DNA of 62,530 nt, counting the filler, from Rhabdomonas costata (taxonomy: Eukaryota), in the NCBI GenBank assembly GCA_019059605.1. It is 36 parts of 36 records of this genome, joined end to end, with 100 filler letters (N's around TTAATTAATTAA, not from the genome) between each part and the next. Parts side by side here need not be neighbours in the genome. Positions count along the whole stretch, not along the records: positions 5,233 to 6,872 come from JAHMHO010011489.1; 35 more parts are not named here. The stretch is one strand, 5' to 3'. The translations under genes and the position numbers were made by a program. Below are positions 159 to 58,372 of this stretch, in pieces; positions within the stretch are counted from its first letter, which is position 1; each line of letters starts with the position of its first letter. Below the pieces are notes generated by a model. The model ran no database searches. It saw only the letters and a list, made by a program, of their open reading frames with translations, and was not told the origin of the DNA.

Positions 159-953
159 CTTCTGGAAGTTCAGTTGGACGTTGCTCTGGGACTGCGTGAA
201 GGCCAAGCTGAGGGTGTCCATGAGGACCTGGTTGGACAGTGTGCCCACACCCAGCACCACAGAGTCCGTCGACCGCACGGGCCGGCCCTCGCACTGCATG
301 CTTGCAGTCATCTGCCGCAGCGCGGCATTGGCCAGGATGGGCGGCAGAGGAAAGCTGGACGACTCCAACAGATGCCTGGAGGAGTCGGGGCTGGCCACCG
401 TCCTGCAAAAAAGAAAAGAAAAGAAAAGCAGAGCAAGGAAAGGGCACATCACGCTTCATCTCCCGATTTCTCTTCCCTGACCCATTGGGAACGTTGCAGG
501 GCCACATGTCCCACATGTCCACGCTAAGATACAAACCCAGCGAAAAGAAATCTGGTTATGCCTGAAGCAAGTTATAAAGCATACACACCACGTCCACATA
601 TACAAGCGCAGCAACTGTTGGCAGGACTGTGCTGAGATGAGAGCATAGGGTGGAACTCACCTGCCCCACCCCCTCTCACGCCAAATACTATCTATCAACC
701 TCCTTTGCACAACAGCCCCCTCAGAAAAATCCCCGTGGCCTCGCACCTAAGGGAAAGTGGATCCTCGGATGGGTGATGAGCCACCCACCATCGCAAAGGA
801 ATGCAAAGTAAGGAACTGGGAACTTGCATACCATCGAATCAACTCAAAGATGGCTGTGGCCACCTCGCAGTCATTGTAGGCGCTGTGGATCGCGGCGTAG
901 GACATCATTATCATGGGGTACGTCATCATGCCGGGCAGGCTGACCACAGAGGA
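159..953 (-). CDS. Tandem PstS/phosphate-binding-protein-like domain protein, two internal exons (953-832, 402-159); probably a receptor ectodomain
   Basis: A GTATGC..TTGCAG intron (831-403) joins TG+G into Trp. The product SLPGMMTYPMIMMSYAAIHSAYNDCEVATAIFELIRWTVASPDSSRHLLESSSFPLPP resembles a PstS C-terminus (YPI..D C..A.AL..FL.W..PLP). It is followed by VVLGVGTLSNQVLMDTLSLAFTQSQSNVQLNFQK, which resembles the start of a second PstS domain. Confidence 0.65.
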
Positions 954-3385: not shown

Positions 3386-5232
3386 ACAACCACAANNNNN
3401 NNNNNNNNNNNNNNNNNNNNNNNNNNNNNNNNNNNNNNNTTAATTAATTAANNNNNNNNNNNNNNNNNNNNNNNNNNNNNNNNNNNNNNNNNNNNGGGGG
3501 TGGGGGGTGCCTGTGAGGCCCTTTTCAGAAGAGTCGGGAACTTACGGGAAAGGTACAGCTCAGAGGCAAGCCTGGAGGGGTCCGTAACTGGAACACAGTA
3601 CACAGTTAGATGCCTGAGATAGATAATGGGTCAATTCTTTGAGAACCGAGGAAGCTGTAGCAAGGGGTGCGTTCACAACTTTCGTTGCAATGAGCAGTGA
3701 CACTGGCGCGGGCACGCTCACTGGATGTCGTCACTCACTCTGCTTTCTATCACTGTGACTGTGTGTTCCGAAGCGTGTGTGAGAGAGTGTGGGTCAGTGG
3801 TTCAGTGAGTGAGTGCGTGTGCGCGTGAATTGATTGATTGATTGAGTGAGTGAGTGAGATACTCTTTACCACGGCTTTGCTTTTAGGTTCGTTGAGGATT
3901 GCGTTCGCAGCGAACAGAGCTTCCTGAGTGCCCAGGGGAGTAGTGGGGGCCTCCTGGTGCCGCGGTGGGGCTGAGAGCCGGGGAAAACGAAGGAGAGTCC
4001 CACGCGCAGTGCTCCATGGGAAGTAGAGAAGGACTCAGTGGGGGCAGAGCGGGGCCGCCTCGGGAGCCCGGCCGTAGCACACACAGCCTGGGGCTCCAAT
4101 GGCGGGGAGAGCGGCCGCGAGTCTTGGCCCGACCGTTGCTGGCGAGAATGATAACAGGAAAAAAACGGGGTCAGAAAGCTGCTGCGATAGTCAAAAGACC
4201 GCCATAAATCAATTTGCGATGTGTGGAAGACGGCTGTCAAAGGCATCTTTGCTTTGGCGTTCTGGTGACGGCTGTCGTTAGTTACCCTCGCATCCCCTAA
4301 CAATGTCCTGACGGCGCTACGCTGGACCAGGGAATCGTTCCGCCACCGCCATTCTACATTGGGAAAGAACACTTATCCATACCTGCTTGTTGAAAAAAGA
4401 CCACACAAGTACTGAAAACTCCCCTATAAAGCTGACAAGCAGCCCCCCCCCCGACTTCAACTTCTTGAAAACACCAGCTGTTTCGCTGACGAAGTCCAAG
4501 AAGTCCCCCGCCCTTACCACTTGCGGGGCGAGCTTGAGCGAGAAACAAAGGCCACAGAAAAGAAACAAATAATCGCTTCCCGCCAGAAGCGCCCCGAGAA
4601 ACCTCACATAGTGCGCGTATAAAGAGTACGTCCGATCAGCAACACAGAAAAAAAAGAGTAAAAACATATTTTGTGGGGGTGGGCGACGGCGGGTTTTGGA
4701 GGGGGCTTCGTGACGATACCTTGGCCATGAAGGAAAAGGGATCGTACAGGATGGTAGAGGGCTTCCCGTGGTCCGAGATGGGCTATATAAGCAAGACAAA
4801 AAGAATGAAAGCGGAACTCCTTGCTTCCAAAAAACGTCGTGGGAGAGGACTGGACCACAGGACCACCCTGTGGCCCCAAAAATTGGGACCCCGCCCGGCA
4901 GCTATACCCACAACAGAAGCTGAGAATTACCTTTATTCGCACGCTCAGAAATATTTTTTCGACCGCAGGCACAGAGGAGCGGAAGGAAGCGAAATGAAGA
5001 GGAATGAACCACACCATTCCACATTCAGTTACCGCAACCCTTCAGTCTACCTGCAGGTAAGCGTTGTTGGGTTTCGGATCACACAAACACGGAACAAGGC
5101 CCTGCTGCGAAAGGAAACGGCTGTTTCCGACCNNNNNNNNNNNNNNNNNNNNNNNNNNNNNNNNNNNNNNNNNNNNTTAATTAATTAANNNNNNNNNNNN
5201 NNNNNNNNNNNNNNNNNNNNNNNNNNNNNNNN

Positions 5233-6872
5233 GGTGGATTCTCCTGCTGCTGCAAAAGAGGCTCCGATGCAGCTGACAGCACTGCGGGCCTCTTTGCAGC
5301 ACCGATGCTTCCGGAGGCTGGGAATGCGGTCGCGTTGCCAGTTGACCACCGCGCAGGGCAAGCAGAGGGCTGTGAACGATGCTTGTCTCCCTGATTGCAC
5401 GGGGGTAGCCTTCCCGGATTCGGCGGTGGCGAAGGAGTGGGCAGAGAAGGCTGCAAGGCTGGAAAAGCTTCTCCGATGCCGTGCGACCTCTAGAGTGGAA
5501 ACAGCACGCCAGGTGTCGCAGCTGATGCGGGAAATGCTGCCGCTGCTGCCGTTTTCCTACAGCCGCATCGTGCAGAAAGTCCTAGAACTCCCTATGGTGG
5601 ATGAGTGTTTGTCTGCCAAGGGTCATTTTGTGTACTGCCTTCTGTCGCCGTTCCTGACGAAAGCCTATGTGGGTGCCGTTGGGCTGAAGCGCCCGCGCGC
5701 TCCTTATGCAAGGCTGCGGGAGCACTGGAATTTGGTGAGGCTCTGGGCCTCCCGTGCGTCACGGAGGCGGTATGCGCAGAGGGCTCCGGAGCTTTACAGA
5801 GCGGTAGCGAAAGTTGGTATCGGTAACGCCATTATGGTTCTCTTGGCAGAGACAGAGATGCATCGGCTGGCCTATGTGGAGGGCTGCTACATCCGCTGGT
5901 TGTCGCCCGTGTTCAACGTGTTTGGCACCTCCTCCGATGATGCCCTACCAGCGGTAGTGAAGCGTGTGTTGGGCTCCTCGATGTCGGAGGACATCAGGCT
6001 GGTCGCCGCTGCGTTGCTGCGCAAGAACCGTCCCCGCCTTCCCCTCCACGTCTGGCCAGTGTTGGCGCAGGTGCTGAGAACCGGGGATCGAGAGCTGGCC
6101 GCGAAGCTGGCGCGACAAGCGCGCCATATGTGGCCACAGCTGAGCCGACTGCGGGCAGCGCCCCGCTTGGTTTTCCCCTGTCCAGTGCCGGCATCCGTGT
6201 TGAAAAAGCTTCGGGCGGAGGTTCATGCTGCGCTGATGGCACTGCCTTTTGTGAGGCGGACACCGCAGTTTACGGTGATGGTAGAGGCCACTGCAGTGTG
6301 TTGGGAGCGGTCTGTTTATGCTGAGGTAGTGTTGGCACCAGCAGCCATTCCCTGGGACCAGGTGGGCCCGTGCCAGTGCGGTTCGCTGCCTGACTGGGTC
6401 CGCCGATTCCAAGGGCATGTGATATGCCGGGAATGGCAGAAGATTGCATGGTGCCGTGAGCTTGCGGCCGTGGTGGGAAGAGCCTCGCTGCAAACGCGGA
6501 CCTATCCGTCATTGCAGCGGATAGTGGGGGAGTTCTCGGCAAGGGTAATTCGTTACCTGCGGCTGGGTGGTTTTCCGGAGGAAGAAGCCACAGATGCGGC
6601 TTCCGCGGTGATGAAAACAGCCCTGACAACCCTCTCGCCGTGGTACGCTGCGCTTGCGCCCGCACTGAAGCAAAAGAACTTAATTGCATCTCGCAGCAAA
6701 GTGTGGGCTGGTGGACTGGTGCTGGTTCGGGTGGATCGCAGTCCCGGCCGGATCATGGTCCTGTGTCGGGAGCTTTGGCAGAAGCTGCAAGTTGCAACTT
6801 TTCTGGAGAACTCGAGGTACAGGACTTTGAATTTGTCTTCCTTTACCGAGGACGTGGCGTATGCGCTATCGG
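5233..6872 (+). mobile_element. Penelope-like retroelement ORF fragment with N-terminal GIY-YIG endonuclease (Naiad/Chlamys type), cut at both contig ends
   Basis: About 546 codons with no stop or intron. GIY-YIG motifs HFVYCL..KAYVG, ARLREHW, YVEGCYI and LSPVFN at ~5620-5920. CxC..GHV linker (CQCG..FQGHVIC) at ~6370-6430. RT N-terminal motif LVLVRVDRSPGRIMVLCRELW at ~6715-6780, equivalent to the PLE pattern V..PADK...IV..C..Y. Confidence 0.82.
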
Positions 6873-36420: not shown

Positions 36421-36580
36421 CGCGGTGCTTGGGTCATGTGTTTCNNNNNNNNNNNNNNNNNNNNNNNNNNNNNNNNNNNNNNNNNNNNTTAATTAATTAA
36501 NNNNNNNNNNNNNNNNNNNNNNNNNNNNNNNNNNNNNNNNNNNNGGGTTAGTACCAGCGTCTCCTTCGATTCCTTACCAG

Positions 36581-38183
36581 GGTTTGGGTGGATTTTTTTT
36601 TCGACGAGGCTGAAATGGAGGGGATTTATTCCTGTGCTCGTAGACATCCTGACACTTATGGCCGTCGTGGTCCTGGTCATGGTCGTGGTGTCGGGGCTTT
36701 GCAGAAAGAGCGCGAGGACAAGCACAGACAGCGCATTCTTTGGTACGGCGAGGACGACGAGGCCCGAGCGCAGGCCAGGGCGGAGTTTCTTCGAGTGGCC
36801 CAGGCCGCTCGGGAGACGTCCGGGGATCCGGCGAGGAGCTTCGACCCCGAGCTGGGCGTATACTACGCTTGGGCACAGAGCTCACGCAGTGTGGCGATTG
36901 CGGTGCGCCTGCCGTCGTGGAGCACTTCTGGGGAGGTAATACTGTGGGCTATATGCCCTGTCTCATTCCGCGTCTATATTTTTTTTACGATGCTCATGGT
37001 GTCTCTGATCACTTGCTCGATTAACTGCGGTGTTTGCAATTCTGAATGAAACTAACGGCTGGCAGAGGGTCAGCGTGCACAAAAAGCGGAATTAAGTTAG
37101 CACTTCGGGTGCCGTGTTTTTTACTTTTACCCGGATTTCTGTCGCGTAAACTATTCTTGCCAACGAAGCACAAACTAAGCAAGGTTCAAGCATGACCGCA
37201 GTGATTTTATCGTATCGTAGTTGGCATGCGCGGATGCATTTATTGTTTTTGTTCGTTCGGATGGTTTCGGGATGGGGGAAACGCGTTAGTCTCCCGTAAG
37301 CCTGGATGTCGCCGACGAGGCGCGACTGGTGCTGCGGCAGCCCGATCTCGAGGTACCCGTGCTGGACCGTGTGCTAGCCACCGCGGTGCAGGCCCAGCAG
37401 TGTATGGTGTACACGCTACCTACAATGCAGCATGCGGTGGTTCTCGTGGAGAAGCCCGATCCAGGGCAGCGGTGGCGCAAGCTGTTTGAGGGCGACACAG
37501 ACGGCACCCGGGAGGCCTCATCTCAGCCCTACACTCTATCTAGGCCGGTGTGTGGTTTTTTCTGTCCTGAACTGCTGGCGTAAATTGTAACACAGGCATC
37601 TGCGCCAGCAACTGTAATGCTCCAGTTAGTGAGTGGTTGTGAGTCCCTTGCATATCTGAGCACCTTGCGAACGGCTCCTGCTTCAAAAAATCCAGCTTCG
37701 GCGATTGAAAAGTCTTTTCTGAACTGGCAGTATCTTGATAGCACTAAGCCTAAGCTGGCCTGGGTCTTTTGTTCATACAGCAGCAGCAGCAGTAGCAGGC
37801 CTCCCGAAACGCTGGACAGCTGGTACTTCCCAGGGCTTCCTGACCTTTCTCCTTGGGCCGATTCTGGTGCCCCTTGGCAGCTTTTCGTATCCCTTTTGCG
37901 CCGCTTCTTGCCCCACACAGCCGAAGGTTTACGACAGCACCGACAAAGTGTTTACAAAAACACCCCACCCCTCACTTCATTGTCTGAAAGGTGCAGGCAT
38001 AGTCATATTTTGATTCACCTTTATGTAAACAGCATTGCTGCTTCCTCGTTTCTTTGTTATGTAAGGAAGCAGGCTACACACTGGTATCCTTCGAGGTCCC
38101 TGCGTCGACCGTCTGGGCCGACGTCACGGTAGAGGTGGATGTGGGCTCCCTTCTCGTGATTGTGGGAAGCTTGCTACAAGCAC
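36581..38183 (+). CDS. Tandem CS (p23/NudC, HSP20-like) domain protein, three exons (36581-36935, 37290-37547, 38066 to contig end)
   Basis: YYAWAQSSRSVAIAVRLP..|SPVSLDVADEARLVLRQPD..VLVEKPDPGQRWRKLFEGD..PYTLSRP|EAGYTLVSFEVPASTVWADVTVEVD. Joins are phase-0 GT-AG. Confidence 0.7.
37692..37948 (+). repeat. Dispersed repeat family A, copy inside intron 2 of the CS-domain gene
   Basis: CTAAGCCTAAGCTGGCCTGGGTCTTTT..AGGCCTCCCGAAACGCTG..GCCGCTTCTTGCCCCACACAGCCGAAGGTTTACGACAGCACC, with an upstream arm CCAGCTTCGGC. Confidence 0.85.
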
Positions 38184-38597
38184 NNNNNNNNNNNNNNNNN
38201 NNNNNNNNNNNNNNNNNNNNNNNNNNNTTAATTAATTAANNNNNNNNNNNNNNNNNNNNNNNNNNNNNNNNNNNNNNNNNNNNGGGTGTTGGTGACACCC
38301 CCCCCCCATCAATTCCTCGCTGTCCATTACAAGCGTTCACACAAAACCATATTGTTCTCTGCTGGCCTCTGCATAAATCAGAAACTCGTTTTGGGAGGGA
38401 GGGAGTGACTGAGAGGTGACAGGTGATTCGTTAGCCTTCAGGTGCTCAGATGGGATCCGCAGAGGTCGCCCCTGATTTGAAGACGAAGGTACAAAGCCTC
38501 GGACATCCGGCGGAGGTCATACCACAAACTGGAAGGCGGAGCCGGGAATCTGTGTATCCTACCTATCCTATCGTGAAACGAGGGGATTTCAGCATAC

Positions 38598-38711
38598 ATG
38601 AAAAGGATGCTGACCACACGGCGGTCCATGTCGTTGGTGGAGTCCATCTCCCCACTCAGCATCATCCGAACCACATCCCGGGGCACAAACTTCACAAAGG
38701 CCCGGAGCCCC
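38598..38711 (-). CDS. Class III adenylate/guanylate cyclase, exon just before the catalytic Asp
   Basis: AAG|GLRAFVKFVPRDVVRMMLSGEMDSTNDMDRRVVSILFM|GTATGC matches L..F.KFVP..VV......R.V.ILF.DI. Confidence 0.88.
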
Positions 38712-39132
38712 CTTAATGTGAAGAAAGAGAGGCGTGAAAACGCTGGGAAAGGCAAAGCAGAGGACAACCACGCAAGCGCCCTCTGCACCCGGCCAGGCTC
38801 AAAGAAAAGAATGGTATGGGTGGTTCAACTACCCATCGCTTTCCAAACGTTGCATTTTCCCGTTTCCAAAACTCATACAATTGGGGGGAAGCGGGGCAGT
38901 GTGAACGTTGCAAATGAAATGAAATGCCAGTGTCGCGTGTTGAAACAGCCCAGGAGCTGAAATCATGAAGAAATAATTTTGTTAAAGTTTTTGCAGGCAG
39001 CCACGGGGCTTTACACTGTCATTGCAGTGAAAATAAAGAGAAGATCTTATGCGACCTCGCAGACTTCGAAGACGTGGAAAACGCAAGGGCAAGAGTAAAA
39101 TGATCATTTAGAAAACGAAAAAGCTTCACAAG

Positions 39133-39395
39133 GGGCTTGCCTTCCGCTTGTGTTCTCCACACGCCTAATAATCAGCGGATTGCTGTTCACAACGGGGAAC
39201 AATAAAGGCGAGGGCGAAGCCCAAACAGGCCTGGGAATATACAGGAGGCCTCCCGAAACGCTGCGTGGCCGGTCCTTGGGGCCAGGAGATTCGCGACCTT
39301 TCACCCTCGGTTCACACTCGGCCAGTTGAAGTGCCCCTTGGCTGCTCTTTGTAACCCTTCTACGCCGCTTCTTGCCCCACGCAGCGGAGGGATTG
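39133..39395 (+). repeat. Dispersed repeat family A copy
   Basis: GAGGGCGAAGCCCAAACAGGCCTGGG..AGGCCTCCCGAAACGCTGCGTGGCCGGTCCTTGGGG..GCCGCTTCTTGCCCCACGCAGCGGAGGG, with an upstream arm GGGCTTGCCTTCCGCTT. Confidence 0.88.
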
Positions 39396-40487
39396 CTGTA
39401 TGAGTCTATTCTCGGCAAGTCTAGTCTCACACTCAGAGTAATTGGGATTTCTCTGCGAAGTGCATTGTACTTCTAAAGAAGCCCTCAACGTTTCGTCATC
39501 AAATGCGCAAACAAAGAAAGTGAGTGAGGGGGCAGGGGTACACCTCTCGAGCGAGAGGAACGACTGCTCACACATCCGGACTTCCGCGAACCGTGACCGG
39601 GAGGTCAGCAATGGCCTTCCGCCGGGCTTCTCTTCGAGTCTCAGCATGGACTGTGTTACCACAAAATGCATTAGCGTGCCCACAAACAGAATCCTCCTTC
39701 ACCCCCCATTTCGTTCTGCCTAAATATCGTACGGTGGCATAATATTCGGCGAGACGGGCAGAGTGTAGCCCGATGATTGAGTCCCCGGAAAATGAAAGCT
39801 TGCCATAAATTAAAGGGGTCAAACGCGCATTTTATTATTATTTAACTCAGCTCCAATTCACTGCAATTGCCCGGTCTAGCAATATCCCTCGGATCCTCCA
39901 AAATGGACACACCCACATACCANNNNNNNNNNNNNNNNNNNNNNNNNNNNNNNNNNNNNNNNNNNNTTAATTAATTAANNNNNNNNNNNNNNNNNNNNNN
40001 NNNNNNNNNNNNNNNNNNNNNNGTGTTGGGTGTGTGTGGTGGGGGTTTGGGAGCGTGTGCGTGTGCGCGTGCAGGAAGAACTGGAACCATCTTTGTGCAT
40101 GACACTGCGTTTGCGCGACTTTCTTGGGCAGGTACATTTCCATCGTTCCGCACTTCTGGGCTGGTGTTTTTCGAGGAGGGATCTGATTGGAGGAGATTAT
40201 CTTCTTTTCATGAACAATGGACAACGCGCTCCTTCAGTGTGTCTGCGATTGTGTTTGTGCAGGGAAAGTGGCGTGAGGTGCCCAGGTGTCGAGTGACCAG
40301 ACGTTGAGAGATGGATGCCGGTGGCCCATCGAGAGAGGGTAGCCCATGGGGGGCAAGAAAGAGTCTTCCCAAAAAAAAAGTGCATAATGTGTGCGAGTGT
40401 TGGCGAATCGGTTTTTTGTTTTTCGTTTGTTTTGTTCTTGGGAAGACAAGTGTGTGTGTATGTATGTTGGTTGTCGGTTGTGCGCAG

Positions 40488-48624: not shown

Positions 48625-48849
48625 NNNNNNNNNNNNNNNNNNNNNNNNNNNNNNNNNNNNNNNNNNNNTTAATTAATTAANNNNNNNNNNNNNNNNNNNN
48701 NNNNNNNNNNNNNNNNNNNNNNNNTGTTGTGGGGTGAGGGTGAGCAGGCGGCTGCTTCACTGCTGGCACCCACGCTCTGGAAAAGAGGGGGGGAGACGGC
48801 AGTGAAGCAGCCGCCTGCTCACCCTCACCCCTCAACTTTTTGTGGCCAG

Positions 48850-49118
48850 GGGAGGTGGGCGCGGTGGTCATCCTGGAGCTGGGGTGTTCGCGCAAGAATG
48901 ACCCCTGCCGCCGCCACAGCGAGCGGGTGTTCAAGCTGGCGAAGAGCTCGCAGCGGTGCACCCACATCCGGATCAGCACGGAGGACCTCACCGCGGGGAA
49001 GGGCAGCGCAGTGTCCAGCCAGGACGCCGCCCACACCATTATTATGGTCGTGGAGAGCCTGCTGAGCGCGCTGAACCACATCGACCGGTGCATGGTGGAT
49101 ATGAAGCGGCGGAAGTAA
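48850..49118 (+). CDS. Sirtuin (SIR2-family) C-terminal region, terminal exon
   Basis: VVILELGCSRKNDPCRRHSERVF..THIRIS..LSALNHID.., ending in TAA. Resembles LVVLE.GAG...PTVR..SE...LIRIN of bacterial-type sirtuins, but divergent. Confidence 0.6.
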
Positions 49119-49941
49119 TTACGCGGAGCCAGGGATTCCACCGCATTAATGCCCCCCCCAATCTCCCCGTCAGCACACTTGCGTCTTTGTGGTCTTGGTG
49201 TGTAGCATCCTGTTGGTGTGCCGTGACTTTCTGACTGCCTGTGCATGGACCTGTGTGTACATCTTAATGGGCTGGTGCTTATCTTTCAGGAGCGGAGGAT
49301 ACACTGTTCCAATCACCAAAACCAACAGGGGAGAGGGTTTCAAAATAAGTACTGCTTTAAGAACGGGATCTTCTCGAAGGACGGTCACCTGCCTGCCTGC
49401 TCACGTTATGTAACAACGCTCAGTAACAACACCCTTGTCTGTGCACGTGATGGTACAAGAGTCCCCCCCCCTCTCGATTTCTAAAGAAGCCTGCGCCTTC
49501 CGTGTACCTTACTTTCCGTCACCATTCCCTCGCCTGCCACCAAACCCTCGCCTGGGCCACTTGTAACTTCGGATGAAGGATATATAGAAAAGCATGCCGT
49601 ATTTTTACCGCGGTTTTTGTTGTAGTTTGGGTGCATTGCCCCTCTGTCGTTCCTGGATCACAGTTGTCGAATGAGGGTGGGGCCGACGCTTGGAATTGAT
49701 TAGGCTGGATTTTTGAAATGAGTAATTGATTTCTCCTGTAACGTTAAGCATATGGGGTGTTGCATCTATGTGATCAGACATGTGAAGAAATCAATTTCTC
49801 AATGTGGCGAACCTATGGGGAGACGGGGTCAGAGGGAGCTTTTGTTCTCAAGAAGGTAGTAGTAGCCTGTGGCCAAGAGGTACGCCTTTGCAGCGGCCAT
49901 GGTTGGCAGGGAGAGTAAGAAGAAAGGCCCGGAATTCCTTT

Positions 49942-50212
49942 TCCTCTTTTTTTGCCAAGGAATCAAGATACTCACATCCCAAGCCGTTTCAGAGGACATT
50001 AAACGGCATGAAGAGGGCTAAGCCGAAGCAGGCCTGGGGTCTTTCGTATATACAACAGGCCTCCTGAAGCGCTGCGTGGCCGGTCCTTGGGGTCAGAATT
50101 CTCTGACCTTTCACCTTCGGCCGATTGTTGTGCCCTTGGGCGGCTCTCTGGTATCCCTTTTGTGCCGCTTCATGCCCCACGCAGCGGAGGGTTAACGACA
50201 GCACCCGCAACG
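49942..50212 (+). repeat. Dispersed repeat family A copy
   Basis: AGAGGGCTAAGCCGAAGCAGGCCTGGGGTCTTTCGTATATACAACAGGCCTCCTGAAGCGCTGCGTGGCCGGTCCTTGGGG..CCCCACGCAGCGGAGGGTTAACGACAGCACCCGCAACG. Confidence 0.88.
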
Positions 50213-50728
50213 TATTTACAAACGCACTCCGAACGGGGCCAGACAATTGGCTTTTGGCCGCCTGAAGCCCACAAACATCATGGTATTACTCGTCGGGAGG
50301 GGGGATCAGGGTCATGGCGCCTGCTCTGTTAGAGCGTTCGGAGAAGCCTCATCTCGTCCACACNNNNNNNNNNNNNNNNNNNNNNNNNNNNNNNNNNNNN
50401 NNNNNNNTTAATTAATTAANNNNNNNNNNNNNNNNNNNNNNNNNNNNNNNNNNNNNNNNNNNNGTGGTGTGTGACCTGCTCAGAAAACAGCGTGTTCGAC
50501 CCCGAGTGGACAGTGAGTAGGCATACTTCGACCACCCGTCGGACTCTTCTGAGAGTGAAATACCGAAGCTCTCATCAAACGCTGGGAATGGCCGACCGTG
50601 AGCAAGCGAGTCCAGGAGGAAAACAAAGAGGGACCGGGTGAGGGAACGTAAAGGTGTGCCGGAGCAAGTGAACGGGTGAGCTTGTGAGTGTGTTTCACAG
50701 CGCCGCGAGAAGGAGGGGAGGGCCTCAC

Positions 50729-50842
50729 CTGCTGCCGGCGAGCAGGCTCCCCGACAAGCATCTTGTCGTCCTTTGCAAAGGCAACCACGGAGGGGGTTGT
50801 CCTTTTGCCCTCGATATTCTCCATCACAATGACCTGCCCACT
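50729..50842 (-). CDS. Hsp70/DnaK-family chaperone (organellar-like), internal exon
   Basis: AG|SGQVIVMENIEGKRTTPSVVAFAKDDKMLVGEPARRQQ|GTGAGG matches EN.EG.RTTPSVVAF....LVG..A.RQ. Confidence 0.92.
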
Positions 50843-52962
50843 CTGAGAATGCGGGGTGCGGGAGGAGAGGATTGGCCATAAGCGATAAAAACAGTTCCAG
50901 AACAGACTTCTCACCACGCTTGAATTGCACCCACTCCGGCTATTTTGCGGCTCTGGAAGTCTGGAGTGCATTTGCACACAACGGACGGGGTGCACCGTCC
51001 CTTGAAAAAGCGAGAATGGCTGTGAGGAAGTCTTGAGCACTTCTTTCCCCACCTGGTTCCTGCCAAATTCAGACCTTCAATCACCCCGTATAGGACCTGG
51101 TTCAGTCGGGGACTGCCAAAAACACCTCTAAGAGCGGCCCTTTGTAAGAAAAGTTGTCTTCTCAACATCCTCTTCCACTTCTCCCTTCTCCCTCCCTCAC
51201 TCGTGATCTCCCTCGTCACTTCGTGGCCTCTCACCCTTTTCATCTCTCTCTCATCTCTCTCTACACTGGATGGTACACCACTGATTTGCTCGACAGTATC
51301 TTATATATTGTTCTAACCTATCTCATATATCTCATAGTTCGTGCCTTTCGCTCGGTTCCCAGTTCCCTGTCTCGTTTGCTGCCTTTCTCCTTTCTCTTTC
51401 CTTTTGCTCACCCCCTCGTGTTTATTTGTGCTCCAGCAGTGTGCCTGCACTGACTCCCTGCAGTGTTGAAATCACCTTCGCTCATTTCTTCTCTCGAAAA
51501 GGGAGCATGAAAGTACATCAATATGCCTACCGAGCCCCCATAAAGGGTATCTGCCGAGCATTTCGTTGCTTTTTACCGTCCTAATCAGAGGCCCAGCTTG
51601 CCAGAGCACCGATATGCTCTAAGCAACTCAACACAGTTCACTTCAAAGGTACCCAACAACTGGAGCAGTGCAAATGCGCCGTAAACAACAGAGTTTCAAA
51701 AATACTTAACAAAACAGACGGAAACCCATTGTTGTAACCTCCGCTTGTAAACAGTTGTTCCTGGGCAAAGGGCACCACGCGGCGGAAAAAAAAGCGTGAG
51801 GCAGAGCAGCTCGGAAAATAGCACAACTCAATTGGGGAACATTAGAAGACAAATGAGCTTAGGCGTTACTTCCTGACTAGTACGCTTGCGAAAGTACCCC
51901 CGGGGAAGGAAAAGTAAAGCGCCCAGGCACGTTTTGTATGTGTCAGACCAGGACTTGTAACTTGTGCATTTTCCCAATTTCAGGTCAGACGAGAGCCCAG
52001 GCCGCGAAAGCAAAACAAAAAATCCAGTGGCGACGTATAATACGGCCAGTGGCGACGTATAATACTGCTGAAGGACCCAAAACGCATGGCCACACCACCC
52101 CNNNNNNNNNNNNNNNNNNNNNNNNNNNNNNNNNNNNNNNNNNNNTTAATTAATTAANNNNNNNNNNNNNNNNNNNNNNNNNNNNNNNNNNNNNNNNNNN
52201 NTTGTTGGTGGATAGGAACGGCATCGTCGAAAGAGTGCTGGGGTTAGTTTATGTTTGTGAAAAGAGCACAGGTGAGACTCTGTTGGACGCATGTAGCGTA
52301 TGGCAGGGCGTCCCTTATTTTGGGCGGGAGCTCCTCCACTGTGCAGACTGGAGGCAGAGGAAGAAAAAGGTCAGCGACGTTCGCAGGTGGAACCCTGTGG
52401 TGCAGAGTTAGCAATCTGGAATTCAGTGGCCCTGGTTCGAAAATCTGCTCGCACAGCTGTTCTGGTCTCCCCAAAATTTTTTGTGGGATTCATCCTGTGG
52501 TTGGTCATGTGGTATGATCATGGTGGCAGCAGTGCCTCCCCCCCCCGGATGCTCCTTCGCATCAGTGCAGCGGTTTGTTTCTAAAATTGTTCCTTCTGCG
52601 TTGAGTGTCGTGTCCAACTCGGGAGCAGAGTGCCTCACCTTTGTCTCTCGAGCCTCCAGAACCTCCTCTGGTGCACCTTCGCACCCGTGAAATGACAACC
52701 AGTCTCGTCCGCGCGATTCAGGCTGGAGACCTTCAACAGGTTTAGCCCCCCTCCCCCGCACTCAGTCCCAGCTGTATGCCTGCATGCCGCTACCCATGCT
52801 TAGGTACAAGTCCTTCGAGCTGAAAGGGCGCAAAGTTGTTTAAGTAGCAAGTTCCGATCGGTTCGTATGATGTAGACACGACATGTGAATAACGCCATTA
52901 TTTTGGACAAGCGTGGAGGTTTTGCCGTTGCTTTTGTGTTTTGCCATTGGCGGGCAAAACAG

Positions 52963-54736: not shown

Positions 54737-56274
54737 AGGACACTGGCCGCCGGACCTCCGGGGCACAGCAATGCAAACTGCTGCAGAGTGTTGTGTTGTC
54801 ACTTCTTGAGCGAGTTTAATATGCTTTCCGTCGTATCTGAAGCCTCGTGTGGATGGAGGTGAATGGTTGGCGCCTTTTGAAAATCTTTGAGACCAATGCT
54901 TGATGAGCAGAAACGCCTCAATTCGACCGCGTCCGTCAGGCCACGGCTATATGGACAAGGGTTTCGAGGTAATGGAGCTCAGACGGGAATCAAAGTCACC
55001 ATGAGAAAACACAATGTTCAGGATGATAGCGAATGACATAGCTCCTAGCATCAGCCAGGTCAGGTTGTCCCGCCCTTTTGGCTATTTTTATCATTCTTTT
55101 TGGATGCTGTGTCAGGAAGCTGTTACTGGAAAAAACCGGCGCAAGGTAATCCCAAGATCTTTGGTATGTTCGCATCTTCAGGGTTGATGACGATTGAGTC
55201 TTTGTTGACACTATGATTTTTGAAAAAAAAATCATCATGCGTCGGCCCCAAACGCCCAACACCGCACAGACGCAAATCCCGCCGCCACGGCAATACCTTT
55301 CCTGACATCGAGCTAATGTCCGTCAATCCCGCGGGCCCGTCTGCAAGTGCTTCGTCATGCGATGACGTCGTAAAACGCTCCGCCCCGTTTTGTGAAATAT
55401 TCAGAGATGTTCGCTTTCTCTGGCCAAATACCCGCTTATTGCTTCTACCATGCATCTTTTGTACGCCTTTCCCACAAGGCAACCGGAGAAACACAAGGTA
55501 TAGGCATCAACCCCTTCTCCTCTCAACCCACACACACACACACACACACACACACCACCACCCAACCACACCCACCACNNNNNNNNNNNNNNNNNNNNNN
55601 NNNNNNNNNNNNNNNNNNNNNNTTAATTAATTAANNNNNNNNNNNNNNNNNNNNNNNNNNNNNNNNNNNNNNNNNNNNGTGGTTGGGTGAGTATGGCACG
55701 CCGCATGGACTTCTCGCATGTGGGAGGCCCCTGGATTTCGATTGATTCCCTTCCTCAAACGTTTTGAGTTAGAAAAGTATTTGATGAGATGCTGGCGGAA
55801 GGCGAGATGGGAAATATCATCCCCTTGTGCAGGACCTACTGATGCTTTCAGTAATCCTTGCTATTCCCTTACGCCTTCTGTCGGCATGATCTCTTATGAA
55901 GTACGGTACACCGTAAACTCAGAACTGCACCACAACACATGGCTGGATTTGTACCCGACCTCGCGTGGTGGAATTCGCTTGGAAGCAGCACAAACACGGA
56001 ATCAGTCGACAAAAGCATTGCCCCTTCGGCACAGTAGTCCCTTCCAAGCACTCCATATGTCTACTACGTACATAACATGTCCCAGACAACATCATTTCTA
56101 TAGGCTAAAAAGACTTGGACTAGAATGGAATACCATTTTTTACGCAGCATTTTCTGAGCTTCCGGGTGTAACATACCATATCTTCAGCTCTATATCTGTC
56201 GACCCCATTCATAACAAGCTCTTTCTTTGTTCTACTATACCATTGAGCCCCACCATCTCCCGAACTCGGATCGT

Positions 56275-56882
56275 ATGGAGAAGTGGGCCCTGCTTGCAGC
56301 GGTTGTCGTGGGTGCTGCCGCAATGTTTGTGCTTCATGTGGACAAGCTTGGGCTGTGCTTGGGCGTGGCGGTTGGAGTGGCAGCCACCATCGCCCTGCAC
56401 CCGGAACGCAGGGGGCCGCCAAGCACCTTCGCAGAAAAGCTTGCGGAGGCCGAGGTCGGGCTCTCTCTGCAACCCTTCTTCTGGGGTTGCATCTGAAATG
56501 GAAGATTTTTCGGAGTAAAAGTGATCGTAGTGTGTTTGTATTGCTCCCACAAAGGCTGAAACGAAAGGTATGATTCACACCCACTTTGTCGTGGCTGTTA
56601 TCGTGGGGTGAAAGTGGTGGTCGTGGGCAAAAGGAAAGAAGGATCAAGGTCAAGATGATTGGCCCGGATTGCTCCGGAGTATTCACTGCCAGCGTCACCA
56701 GGGCATCTGTGCATCTGTTTTGGTTCCGTTCTTCTTGAAATTCACTCTGTCGTCCGTCGCTTGACGTTCGATTTTGCTCTTTGGTTTCTTTGTCTTTTTC
56801 GCAAAAACGAAAGGCCACGTTGGGGGTCGCCGCGATCCCCCCGGAGAAGGCCAAGGAGGCCGTGAAGCAGCCCGGCGTAATG
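56275..56882 (+). CDS. Rhodanese-like protein with hydrophobic N-terminal extension, two exons (56275-56454, 56814-56882)
   Basis: MEKWALLAAVVVGAAAMFVLHVDKLGLCLGVAVGVAATIALHP..TFAEKLAEAE|ATLGVAAIPPEKAKEAVKQPGVM resembles the start of a rhodanese domain before the DVR motif. Confidence 0.55.
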
Positions 56883-58372
56883 GTACCCCACCCTGTCCTT
56901 CGGTCGTTCCTCTTGTCTTTGCTCTCCTTGTTTATGGTGACTTTTAGTCCTCTTTTGTTTTGGAGCCATTCGTGGGAACTTGGTAAGTACTGGTGAACGG
57001 ACCGCCCTTCCACTTTCTCAAAACCGTGACGGTACTTCGCTCTGTCGCTGGGGCGGTTAATCCTTGAAGGGCATGTATCCCAGTCCTTCCTCGATGTGTC
57101 TGAAATCTACCGTGGGCCTCTCTGCTCCTAAGGGCTCCTTTGTATTGGTTGGTTGCCTGGGGAGTAGATTTCAAATACTACGTGGCGATATACGTCAAAC
57201 CGAAGCACGTACAGTTGTGTCGAGCTGGGCCGGGGCCCCAGGGTTCAGTTTCGTCCTTCGTCGTATAACACCGGTTTATCGTATAAGGGCGTTATACCGT
57301 TTGACCCCACCCACAANNNNNNNNNNNNNNNNNNNNNNNNNNNNNNNNNNNNNNNNNNNNTTAATTAATTAANNNNNNNNNNNNNNNNNNNNNNNNNNNN
57401 NNNNNNNNNNNNNNNNTTTTTGTGTTCAGAGCTTATGTTTTGTTTTTTGGTGGATGGGGTTGGGATGGGGTCGAGGACTTCGCTTCGTCCCAATGTAGTG
57501 TCGCGTCACGAAAATCAGACCCACACACCTGCGGAAGTTAAAACACCAGCTAAACATGTCGCATGCAAAGAGAATGAATATCCCATGTTACGTGAAGCCT
57601 CTGTTGCAGGTATTGAAAACTAAGTCAAATAATGATACGTTTCTTCTGGTTGATTTAACCGAACATACCTGCAGCAAATTGCTGCTACACGCGAATGCGG
57701 ATGATGAGACAGCCCTCAGTTCTTGCTCATACCGAGATCCAGGCCGAACAGTGCTTTATGAGGTGAGACAGACGCACCTGGAGGGACCCCCCCGCCGAAA
57801 TCTTTTTTGAGACAGCAGTAAATTCTATCACCACCGATTGCACCATACTTGGCGTGGCCCAGTAACAAGTAACAGCCGGCACCATTTAGGCCCACCATTG
57901 ACTGTTCGGCGGTGTTCTTTTCGGCGGACATCATATCATCACATCGAGCAACTGACCTTTTGGTCTATTCCGTACCCTGCTCTGCAATACGTTACCTCGG
58001 TGGTGGAGCGAAATCTTAAGTCGAGTGCAGGTTCGAACAGTGGGCTTCGCGTCCTTGTCTTCCCCTGGTGCACTTGTACGTTCCCTATGCTTGCTTCTGG
58101 GAGTTCTGGGTATGCCATTCCCCCAAAAGTGACAAGCGAGCAAGCGATCACCATTTGTTTCTGTGCAGTGGTTCTACATGATGGATCTTAGGTGTTTGAC
58201 GAACAGGCAATGCCACCCCATGGAGCATCCCAATTAATTCGCTTTGGCTCGCATTCCCACTCGTTCGCCAAAAGCCCAGCCGTGACAATTTTTTTATCGC
58301 AAAAGGCAGAAAAGTTTAAAGTTCCCTCCCCAGCTTCTTTGAACTCTCTCCGCCGTTCACTCTCTCGCTCAG

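Follow-up and report, generated by a model that had tools for sequence, protein, structure and literature searches.

The window examined here, i.e., a stretch of 62,530 bases from the Rhabdomonas costata assembly GCA_019059605.1, is not a continuous piece of chromosome and is composed of 36 contigs of 1637-1655 bp each, laid end to end with a spacer of the form N44-TTAATTAATTAA-N44 between one contig and the next. As the window chains unrelated contigs, the neighbours of a given contig provide no genomic context and any feature crossing a spacer is an artefact. The subject of the present analysis is the stretch 5233-6872 (JAHMHO010011489.1), which corresponds to exactly one entire contig of 1640 bp and is probably an internal fragment of a Penelope-like element (PLE), namely a retrotransposon of the group in which the endonuclease (EN) precedes the reverse transcriptase (RT). 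Its GC content is 0.60, against 0.41-0.55 for the remaining 35 contigs. From one end to the other, this contig is occupied by an open reading frame (ORF) designated P0001, comprising 546 codons without any stop and running past both contig ends; considering about 3% stop codons at 60% GC, simple arithmetic gives such a run a chance of about 1e-8. P0001 is also the longest stop-to-stop frame of the window, with 579 amino acids (aa) when the X residues of the spacer are included, the runner-up reaching 328 aa.

P0001 has 15 close matches, the best with an E-value of 1.8e-197 and 65% identity, and the family counts 158 representatives (clusters) at E <= 0.001, of which 44 at <= 1e-30; no relative was found in 185,579 prokaryote genomes, nor in 2.9 million viral contigs. 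Full-length relatives are about 1140-1220 aa long, and several family members exhibit frameshifted tails typical of decaying copies. P0001 aligns to residues 198-742 of the 1166-aa relative P0277, with 64% identity and one 1-aa gap. Since the alignment is confined to this interval, some 197 N-terminal and 424 C-terminal residues are absent, including all RT core motifs, and the contig would cover about 47% of the main ORF (ORF-A). Respective to L003, its nearest relative at the DNA level, identity at codon positions 1, 2 and 3 amounts to 64, 76 and 38%, a pattern indicative of purifying selection on the protein, with third positions near saturation.

Within P0001, the predicted structure confirms a GIY-YIG nuclease fold for residues 130-231, which retain the catalytic R, H, E, and N. 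In the AlphaFold2 model of the window protein (mean pLDDT 83.8, from a 30-sequence alignment), the top VIA-align match of these residues is the catalytic domain of I-TevI (1ln0_A; Z 10.5, root-mean-square deviation 2.0, 85 of 92 residues), which is alone among 48,161 PDB representatives in reaching Z >= 8 and is followed by T4 EndoII (Z 7.1) and the GIY-YIG domain of UvrC (Z 5.7); Foldseek likewise returns 1ln0_B (probability 0.98, TM(target) 0.75). The motifs of the domain are found in the expected succession, i.e., FVY at residues 132-134, YVG at 145-147, RLREH at 160-164, E216 within VEGCYIRW, and PVFN at 225-228. Across the family, R..EH is retained in 61 of 65 pattern matches and the Glu ahead of.FIR...PVFN in 50 of 51 (as counted among the top-ranking matches listed). 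No conserved Cys pair is present inside the GIY-YIG core in A2, an alignment of 20 family members; one frequent core Cys (GKCYVG) is replaced by A in the window and by V or L in further members, and the scattered Cys ahead of the EN do not align as CxxC in A2, the window holding only part of that region. The region preceding the nuclease (aa 1-129) has only coiled-coil-like structural matches (Z 5-6).

Downstream of the nuclease and of a conserved helical linker comes the CxC...GH..R.W motif, whose two Cys, His, Arg, and Trp do not vary in A2; between CxC and GH, 74 of 80 matches have 9-11 residues. The pre-RT region that follows contains VDRSPGR (aa 500-506, nt 6731-6751). All 89 family matches to the pattern [IVLA]D[RK][NSA][PA]GR read DR and never DK, K being allowed by the pattern. 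The contig stops 40 residues past VDRSPGR and contains none of the RT core motifs (1-7). The features of the contig are collected in the table below.

Features of the contig at 5233-6872 and of the adjoining spacers (positions along the window; aa, residues of P0001)
Feature	Position	Strand	Basis
Spacer N44-TTAATTAATTAA-N44, contig boundary, non-biological	5133..5232	.	
Whole 1640-bp contig, probable internal piece of retroelement main ORF (ORF-A)	5233..6872	+	Alignment to P0277
Open frame P0001, 546 codons, open at both contig ends	5234..6871	+	
Helical region before the nuclease, aa 1-129; two long helices, aa 63-107	5234..5620	+	AlphaFold2 model m8d23fc6eb443
GIY-YIG nuclease domain, aa 130-231: FVY, YVG, R160..E163-H164, E216, N228	5621..5926	+	Fold and motifs
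Conserved helical linker, aa 232-379, with LLRKNRPRL, GDRELAAKLARQAR, PCPVP	5927..6370	+	Family alignments A1, A2
CxC...GH..R.W motif: CQC 380-382, GHVICREW 394-401	6371..6436	+	Alignment A2
Pre-RT region, aa 402-546, with RTYP and VDRSPGR; ends ahead of RT motif 1	6437..6871	+	
Spacer, contig boundary	6873..6972	.	

An earlier note on this DNA, made from the sequence alone, had described an apparently intact and recently active element in the only long ORF of the window, with at least 125 extra residues before the EN, the GIY-YIG motifs VY..YVG, R..EH, E..YI, and P.FN, a CxC..GHV linker, a DK motif reading DR, and the start of an RT. The ORF is indeed the longest one, about 130 residues precede the nuclease, all four nuclease motifs are present and backed by the I-TevI-like fold, the linker carries CQC and GHV (394-396), and the DR reading extends from the window to every matched member of the family. 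As for the start of an RT, it holds for the pre-RT region with VDRSPGR and not for the RT core, which lies beyond the contig. The two adjectives are not supported: the contig is cut at both ends and devoid of the N-terminal residues, the upstream ORF, and the whole RT core, so that “intact” applies to the 546 codons only, while a single copy in the window, whose nearest relative found is 64-65% identical, does not speak for recent activity.

The RT itself was considered in the relatives, on which, and not on the window contig, all findings on this domain rest. The 20 members aligned in A2 share the order EN, linker, CxC, DRxPGR, and RT motifs. Following CxC..GH..R.W, the alignment reads DR(N/S)PGR, then YWTIKQKS...K.RPIIAH..HP, then motif A as EFDVEDCFLNTP, motif B as KGLPIGGHLSAALVELVAL, and motif C as ARYRDNFFV, the latter continued by LAFRTD.DRQGESGDV.SWP. 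Motif C is RYRDN in 107 of 109 pattern matches and DD in none. The RTs of PLEs and of telomerase (TERT) normally have DD at this place, so that the family lacks one canonical catalytic aspartate out of three. Pfam RVT_1 appears in 3 of the 20 members, in each case below the cut-off (best E 4.8e-4). For the model of the 706-aa relative P0047 (pLDDT 88.8, pTM 0.87), telomerases fill Foldseek ranks 1-15 (E 4.6e-9 to 8.7e-6), beyond which come calicivirus polymerases (norovirus RNA-dependent RNA polymerase), DRT2, group II intron RTs, and R2; with VIA-align, the top three are again telomerases (Z 16.8, 16.2, and 16.0, with 370-459 residues aligned), followed by the RT of a diversity-generating retroelement (13.0), human TERT (12.9), and R2 (12.5). 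These telomerase alignments start about 20 residues before CxC and run through the pre-RT region into the RT, whose predicted fold is thus closest to telomerase. In P0047, 92 residues separate D411 of motif A from G503 of motif B, with helices at 421-435 and 468-481 and several strands between them; this insertion fits the insertion in the fingers domain (IFD) of the Naiad/Chlamys group of PLEs, and its equivalence to the IFD of TERT is presumed from the model. The language-model neighbours of the RT part, namely eukaryotic clusters with PF26215/RVT_1 (0.92-0.96), commonest in Rotifera, Cnidaria, and Streptophyta, are a lead only.

Whole elements could be described from 14 loci retrieved in one scan of metagenome contigs, all of which are <= 6.5 kb. 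The relatives appear as units of 5.3-6.3 kb, head to tail or in partial tandems, and several different copies occur under the same contig-name prefix, many divergent copies being found together. Directly upstream of ORF-A, 7 of the 8 long loci (6 distinct elements) carry an ORF-B of about 470-515 aa, in frame with ORF-A, only one TGA standing between the two. The eighth, L008 (389-641 and 589-3756), is a degenerate copy with a lower GC content (0.52) and a truncated C-terminus, and exhibits TAG instead of TGA ahead of the ORF, inside a 5'-side tandem repeat. While ORF-B has no Pfam match, all four distinct elements whose contig includes the start of ORF-B encode a CX2CX4HX3-4C knuckle, a C-terminal block is conserved (PYS.WT..Y...R..FW..A...KK.ELA.AL; alignment A4 of L001, L002, L004, L005, L006, and L007), and the remainder is of low complexity, rich in Ala, Pro, and Ser. 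As such, ORF-B looks like a gag-like CCHC protein. The last codon of ORF-A is TGA, TAA, or TAG depending on the locus (TGA in both L001 and L006), and TGA is therefore a stop in these organisms. A sense reading of TGA by the host was rejected on the same ground, together with the occurrence of exactly one TGA among about 1700 codons. In L002, no ATG occurs among the 305 codons past the TGA, which are nonetheless similar to the N-terminal part of other members (E 7e-30); the similarity also reaches upstream of the first ATG in L001 and L005. From these features, we infer that read-through of the UGA may yield both a gag-like protein and a gag-EN-RT fusion.

The ends of several loci repeat one another. 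In L007, positions 1-315 are 99.7% identical to 5278-5592 (unit of 5277 bp) and, in L006, positions 1-211 are 92.9% identical to 6315-6525 (unit of 6314 bp), in both cases head to tail; in L005, positions 4275-5268 equal 5316-6309 at 100% over 994 bp, a full copy being immediately followed by a 5'-truncated one. L003 has a terminal overlap of 97.6% and, in L010, a next ORF-B follows ORF-A. These arrangements are the partial tandems, or pseudo-long terminal repeats (pseudo-LTRs), described for PLEs. A (TG)n run lies at 4290-4311 of L004 and G runs at 4571-4581 of L001 and about 5276-5284 of L006, all within the 3' untranslated regions (UTRs) and soon after the ORF-A stop; these runs recall the (CA)n/(C)n targets of Chlamys, and no junction between element and host was seen in the loci.

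The 3' UTR of the relatives contains an RNA motif, located 90-322 nt past the ORF-A stop in all ten loci covering this region (9 distinct sequences). Its order is a strand, GAAA, a hairpin, (G/A)U-H, 6 to 12 nt, CUGANGA, and the strand complementary to the first, where CUGANGA and GAA are invariant and H is U, C, or A and never G. Covariation is seen in the outer helix, which would be helix II of a hammerhead, as well as in the three proximal pairs that follow GAA; in L002, for example, ACC/GGU is replaced by AUC/GAU. A strict descriptor finds 8 UTR matches and one other site in the loci and none in the window, for a mean of 0.045 per shuffle (200 shuffles), and a covariance model of the proposed structure recovers, in 116 kb, only the 3' UTR sites plus one window match, at 407-482 (-), which was discarded as being at chance level (13.6 bits, E 0.86). 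Counted on an alignment fitted to the covariance model and hence biased towards it, 89.9% of the paired cells can pair, against 76.1 +/- 2.0% when shuffled (0 of 500 shuffles) and 31-50% with the partners slid, and changes on both sides affect 9 of 15 pairs. The stretch from H to CUGANGA is too short for a helix I hairpin and is palindromic in 5 of 9 sequences (AAACGCGUUU, AGCGCU, AACGUU, AAAGCUUU, GUGCAC). In analogy to PLE hammerheads with a minimal palindromic helix III, which have a dimer model (PMC4209133), it is proposed that this permuted hammerhead-like core might act as a dimer. The “HHR_half_core” cases mentioned by Craig et al. (PMC8557442), with core halves 35-50 nt apart, would be a possible precedent.

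Several expectations raised by the earlier note could thus be followed into the relatives. The EN-before-RT order with its CxC/GH linker is borne out in the full-length proteins, the RT being telomerase-like by predicted fold, and the pseudo-LTRs sought in the flanks have their counterpart in the tandem arrangements of L005, L006, and L007. For the hammerhead, the search came out differently, since Rfam returned no canonical one, and what was recognised by hand is a non-canonical, hammerhead-like core.

As for the rest of the window, no other piece of the element was detected, either by tblastn with ORF-A or ORF-B or by blastn with the loci. Among ten further long frames submitted to Pfam, the sole match is an exon-sized piece of HSP70, namely residues 78-119 of a 198-aa open frame at 50483-51076 (-) (E 1.3e-8), which has the appearance of a single exon from a eukaryotic HSP70 gene. 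The contigs 36545-38183, 38284-39922, and 48725-50363 share a diverged repeat of 150-230 bp with 71-75% identity, probably a dispersed host repeat. At 55691-57106, two long frames overlap on opposite strands (275 aa on +, 328 aa on -), without Pfam match.

Taken together, the fold of the nuclease, the domain order, and the motifs make it probable, with good confidence, that the contig is an internal fragment of an endonuclease-first (Naiad/Chlamys) Penelope-like retrotransposon. By analogy with the Penelope elements that have been studied, an RNA copy would be produced from a tandem or pseudo-LTR arrangement, the GIY-YIG domain would nick chromosomal DNA, and the RT would prime on the resulting 3'-OH, i.e., target-primed reverse transcription. 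Considering the relatives only, the 5' ORF would provide the gag-like CCHC protein, ORF-A would be made as a fusion via read-through of the in-frame UGA, and the hammerhead-like core of the 3' UTR would cut multimeric transcripts to unit lengths, perhaps as a dimer. A more specific proposal, namely an undescribed deep lineage of EN-first PLEs combining a gag-EN-RT fusion by UGA read-through, a permuted type II-like dimer hammerhead, and a YRDN polymerase, is advanced tentatively, the chances being somewhat against the whole combination.

A number of points weigh against this interpretation. The placement depends on fold, domain order, and motifs, PLE families having been compared by published description, and the data on the RT, ORF-B, the TGA, the tandems, and the ribozyme all come from relatives with 38-65% protein identity. 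Sequence searches in Pfam and PDB yield no significant link with a named family: Pfam returns for P0001 nothing but a chance-level DUF6894 match and, for 16 longer relatives, nothing over threshold; phmmer of P0001 against PDB sequences returns nothing relevant, and the family profile A1 only designed helical repeats, with neither RT nor nuclease. Two motifs differ as well, in that the conserved DKG-type motif of PLEs is not found, the equivalence of DR to DK being deduced from position and context, and the canonical YxDD form of motif C is absent from the family. Regarding the read-through, no stable RNA structure beyond that of shuffled sequences follows the TGA in 6 loci (z -0.78 to +2.28), and no selenocysteine insertion sequence (SECIS) is reported in the Rfam runs on eight loci and two 3' UTR stretches; selenocysteine at the TGA was set aside, not firmly, for lack of a SECIS. 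Regarding the ribozyme, Rfam finds no match in the whole window at the gathering threshold and no hammerhead either in the eight loci at E <= 1 or in two short 3' UTR stretches at E <= 10, and the minimum-free-energy folds of 5 of 9 sequences (L001, L005, L006, L007, and L010) pair CAGAAAC with GUUUCUG, burying the core. Because Rfam is negative and these folds pair otherwise, a plain protein-binding hairpin is a rival to the hammerhead-like reading; the CAGAAAC/GUUUCUG pairing is impossible in L002, L004, and L011, and the core is invariant there too. Last, with a GC content unlike that of its 35 neighbours, the contig may be a contamination.

Among the rival explanations, the one faring best, and still unlikely, is a separate lineage of retroelements with a telomerase-like RT, not nested within the PLEs, where the GIY-YIG domain would have been acquired, or kept from a common ancestor, independently. 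It would account for the HMMER searches of 5.8 billion proteins, where the single-sequence search gives 140 matches, the best 120 of which are all family members, and the profile search 16 of 8000 scored candidates, from the family only; it would likewise accommodate the merely sub-threshold RVT_1, the substitution of DR for DK and of DN for DD across the family, and a hammerhead-like core permuted differently from the type I motifs of PLEs. Nevertheless, the absence of PLE matches is weak evidence because word-indexed searches miss distant relatives, all the architectural marks given for Naiad/Chlamys in PMC8557442 are present, and the language-model neighbours with PF26215/RVT_1 are commonest in rotifers and cnidarians. 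An episomal or virus-like element, circular or concatemeric, or a contaminant from another organism co-assembled with the host, is slightly less probable again. The outlying GC content of the contig, the terminal overlaps of L007 and L003, as from a circular or tandem molecule, the small size of the relatives' contigs, and the lack of flanking host sequence joined to an element end among the loci would all agree with it. For a simple circle, though, neither the 7% difference between the repeat ends of L006 nor the 5'-truncated partial copy of L005 is expected; moreover, none of the 2.9 million viral contigs holds a relative, and a GIY-YIG nickase associated with an RT is a tool-kit for chromosomal integration. 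Finally, a domesticated, immobile host gene encoding a GIY-YIG and RT-like protein with an altered polymerase site would explain the loss of the second aspartate of motif C, the strong purifying selection, and the single copy in the window, but is very improbable given the many divergent copies found together, the head-to-tail and truncated tandems, the gag-like upstream ORF, the conserved RNA motif of the 3' UTR, and the decaying, frameshifted tails of several members.

The RTs of PLEs are the closest relatives of telomerase. An otherwise complete architecture with YRDN would test the tolerance of the telomerase-like active site. If true, a gag-pol-like read-through of UGA would be a new translational strategy for PLEs, for which a frameshift with a pseudoknot in ORF1 of some elements is the only such strategy mentioned in PMC8557442. 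Likewise, if true, a permuted hammerhead whose helix I is palindromic would extend the dimer-ribozyme idea put forward for PLEs and could explain why descriptor searches miss ribozymes in the EN-first clade. Because Pfam, PDB-sequence, and Rfam searches do not recognise the family, such elements would be left unannotated or called host genes.

Compared with known systems, residues 130-231 share fold and catalytic residues with GIY-YIG homing endonucleases of the I-TevI type, from which the family differs by the inclusion of the nuclease in a retroelement polyprotein and by a long helical extension at the N-terminus, which replaces the DNA-binding domain of I-TevI. The RT model finds its closest structural counterpart in TERT, also for the part preceding the fingers, and both have an insertion between motifs A and B; unlike the present family, TERT works with an RNA template subunit and is encoded by a single-copy host gene, without a nuclease or gag-like ORF, and no sequence-level similarity to it is detectable with the family profile against PDB sequences. 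With the canonical EN-containing PLEs, i.e., Penelope/Poseidon, Neptune, and Nematis, the family shares a telomerase-like RT, a GIY-YIG domain, and pseudo-LTRs from partial tandems, whereas their endonuclease is C-terminal. Penelope-type hammerheads (Cervera and de la Peña, 2014; PMC4209133) are similar to the present core in lying near the 3' end, in the long helix II, in the extra nucleotide after A9, and in a short palindromic helix suggesting dimer action, but are described there as type I with a minimal helix III; in the present family, helix II is the open one, helix I takes the minimal, often palindromic form, and a long hairpin makes up helix III.

According to bioRxiv 10.64898/2026.07.22.740005, PLEs fall into eight recognised clades. 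The description of the endonuclease-first one dates only from 2021 and covers animals, the green lineage, and a slime mould (PMC8557442). A literature search over titles and abstract openings retrieved no such element from euglenids or dinoflagellates and no UGA read-through in PLEs, and YRDN, DR, the in-frame TGA junction, and the permuted 3' core found no match in the portions of the PLE literature compared. In the description given in PMC8557442, the marks of Naiad/Chlamys are an N-terminal EN, CxC, an IFD, no canonical hammerhead ribozyme, and tandem or pseudo-LTR insertions. Like the present family, Naiads are thus EN-first with CxC and an IFD and without canonical hammerheads, and some have in-frame UGA codons; in contrast, as reported there, they are metazoan and possess CCHH, CX2-5CxxC zinc-finger-like motifs, and DKA, of which CCHH and DKA were not found in the family (A2 and pattern counts), and their UGAs are selenocysteine codons at conserved motif sites with a SECIS, whereas the one TGA here separates two ORFs and the Rfam runs gave no SECIS. 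Chlamys, following the same source, is closer. Its marks, which the present family appears to share, are (i) a GIY-YIG domain at the N-terminus, bearing R, H, E, and N but lacking the CCHH pair, (ii) CxC between EN and RT and a long insertion between RT motifs A and B, (iii) no canonical hammerhead and tandem or pseudo-LTR insertions, and (iv) an element size of 3.3-8.2 kb. Judging from this description, the present family is set apart by DR instead of DK (89 of 89) and YRDN in motif C, by an upstream ORF joined in frame through one TGA, and by a permuted, Rfam-negative hammerhead-like core at the 3' side. The nearest description is that of Chlamys-2_cBra, which has a gag-like zf-CCHC ORF upstream and a hammerhead at the 3' side (PMC8557442), and the family fits the EN-first Naiad/Chlamys group and, within it, Chlamys, to judge from the apparent absence of CCHH.

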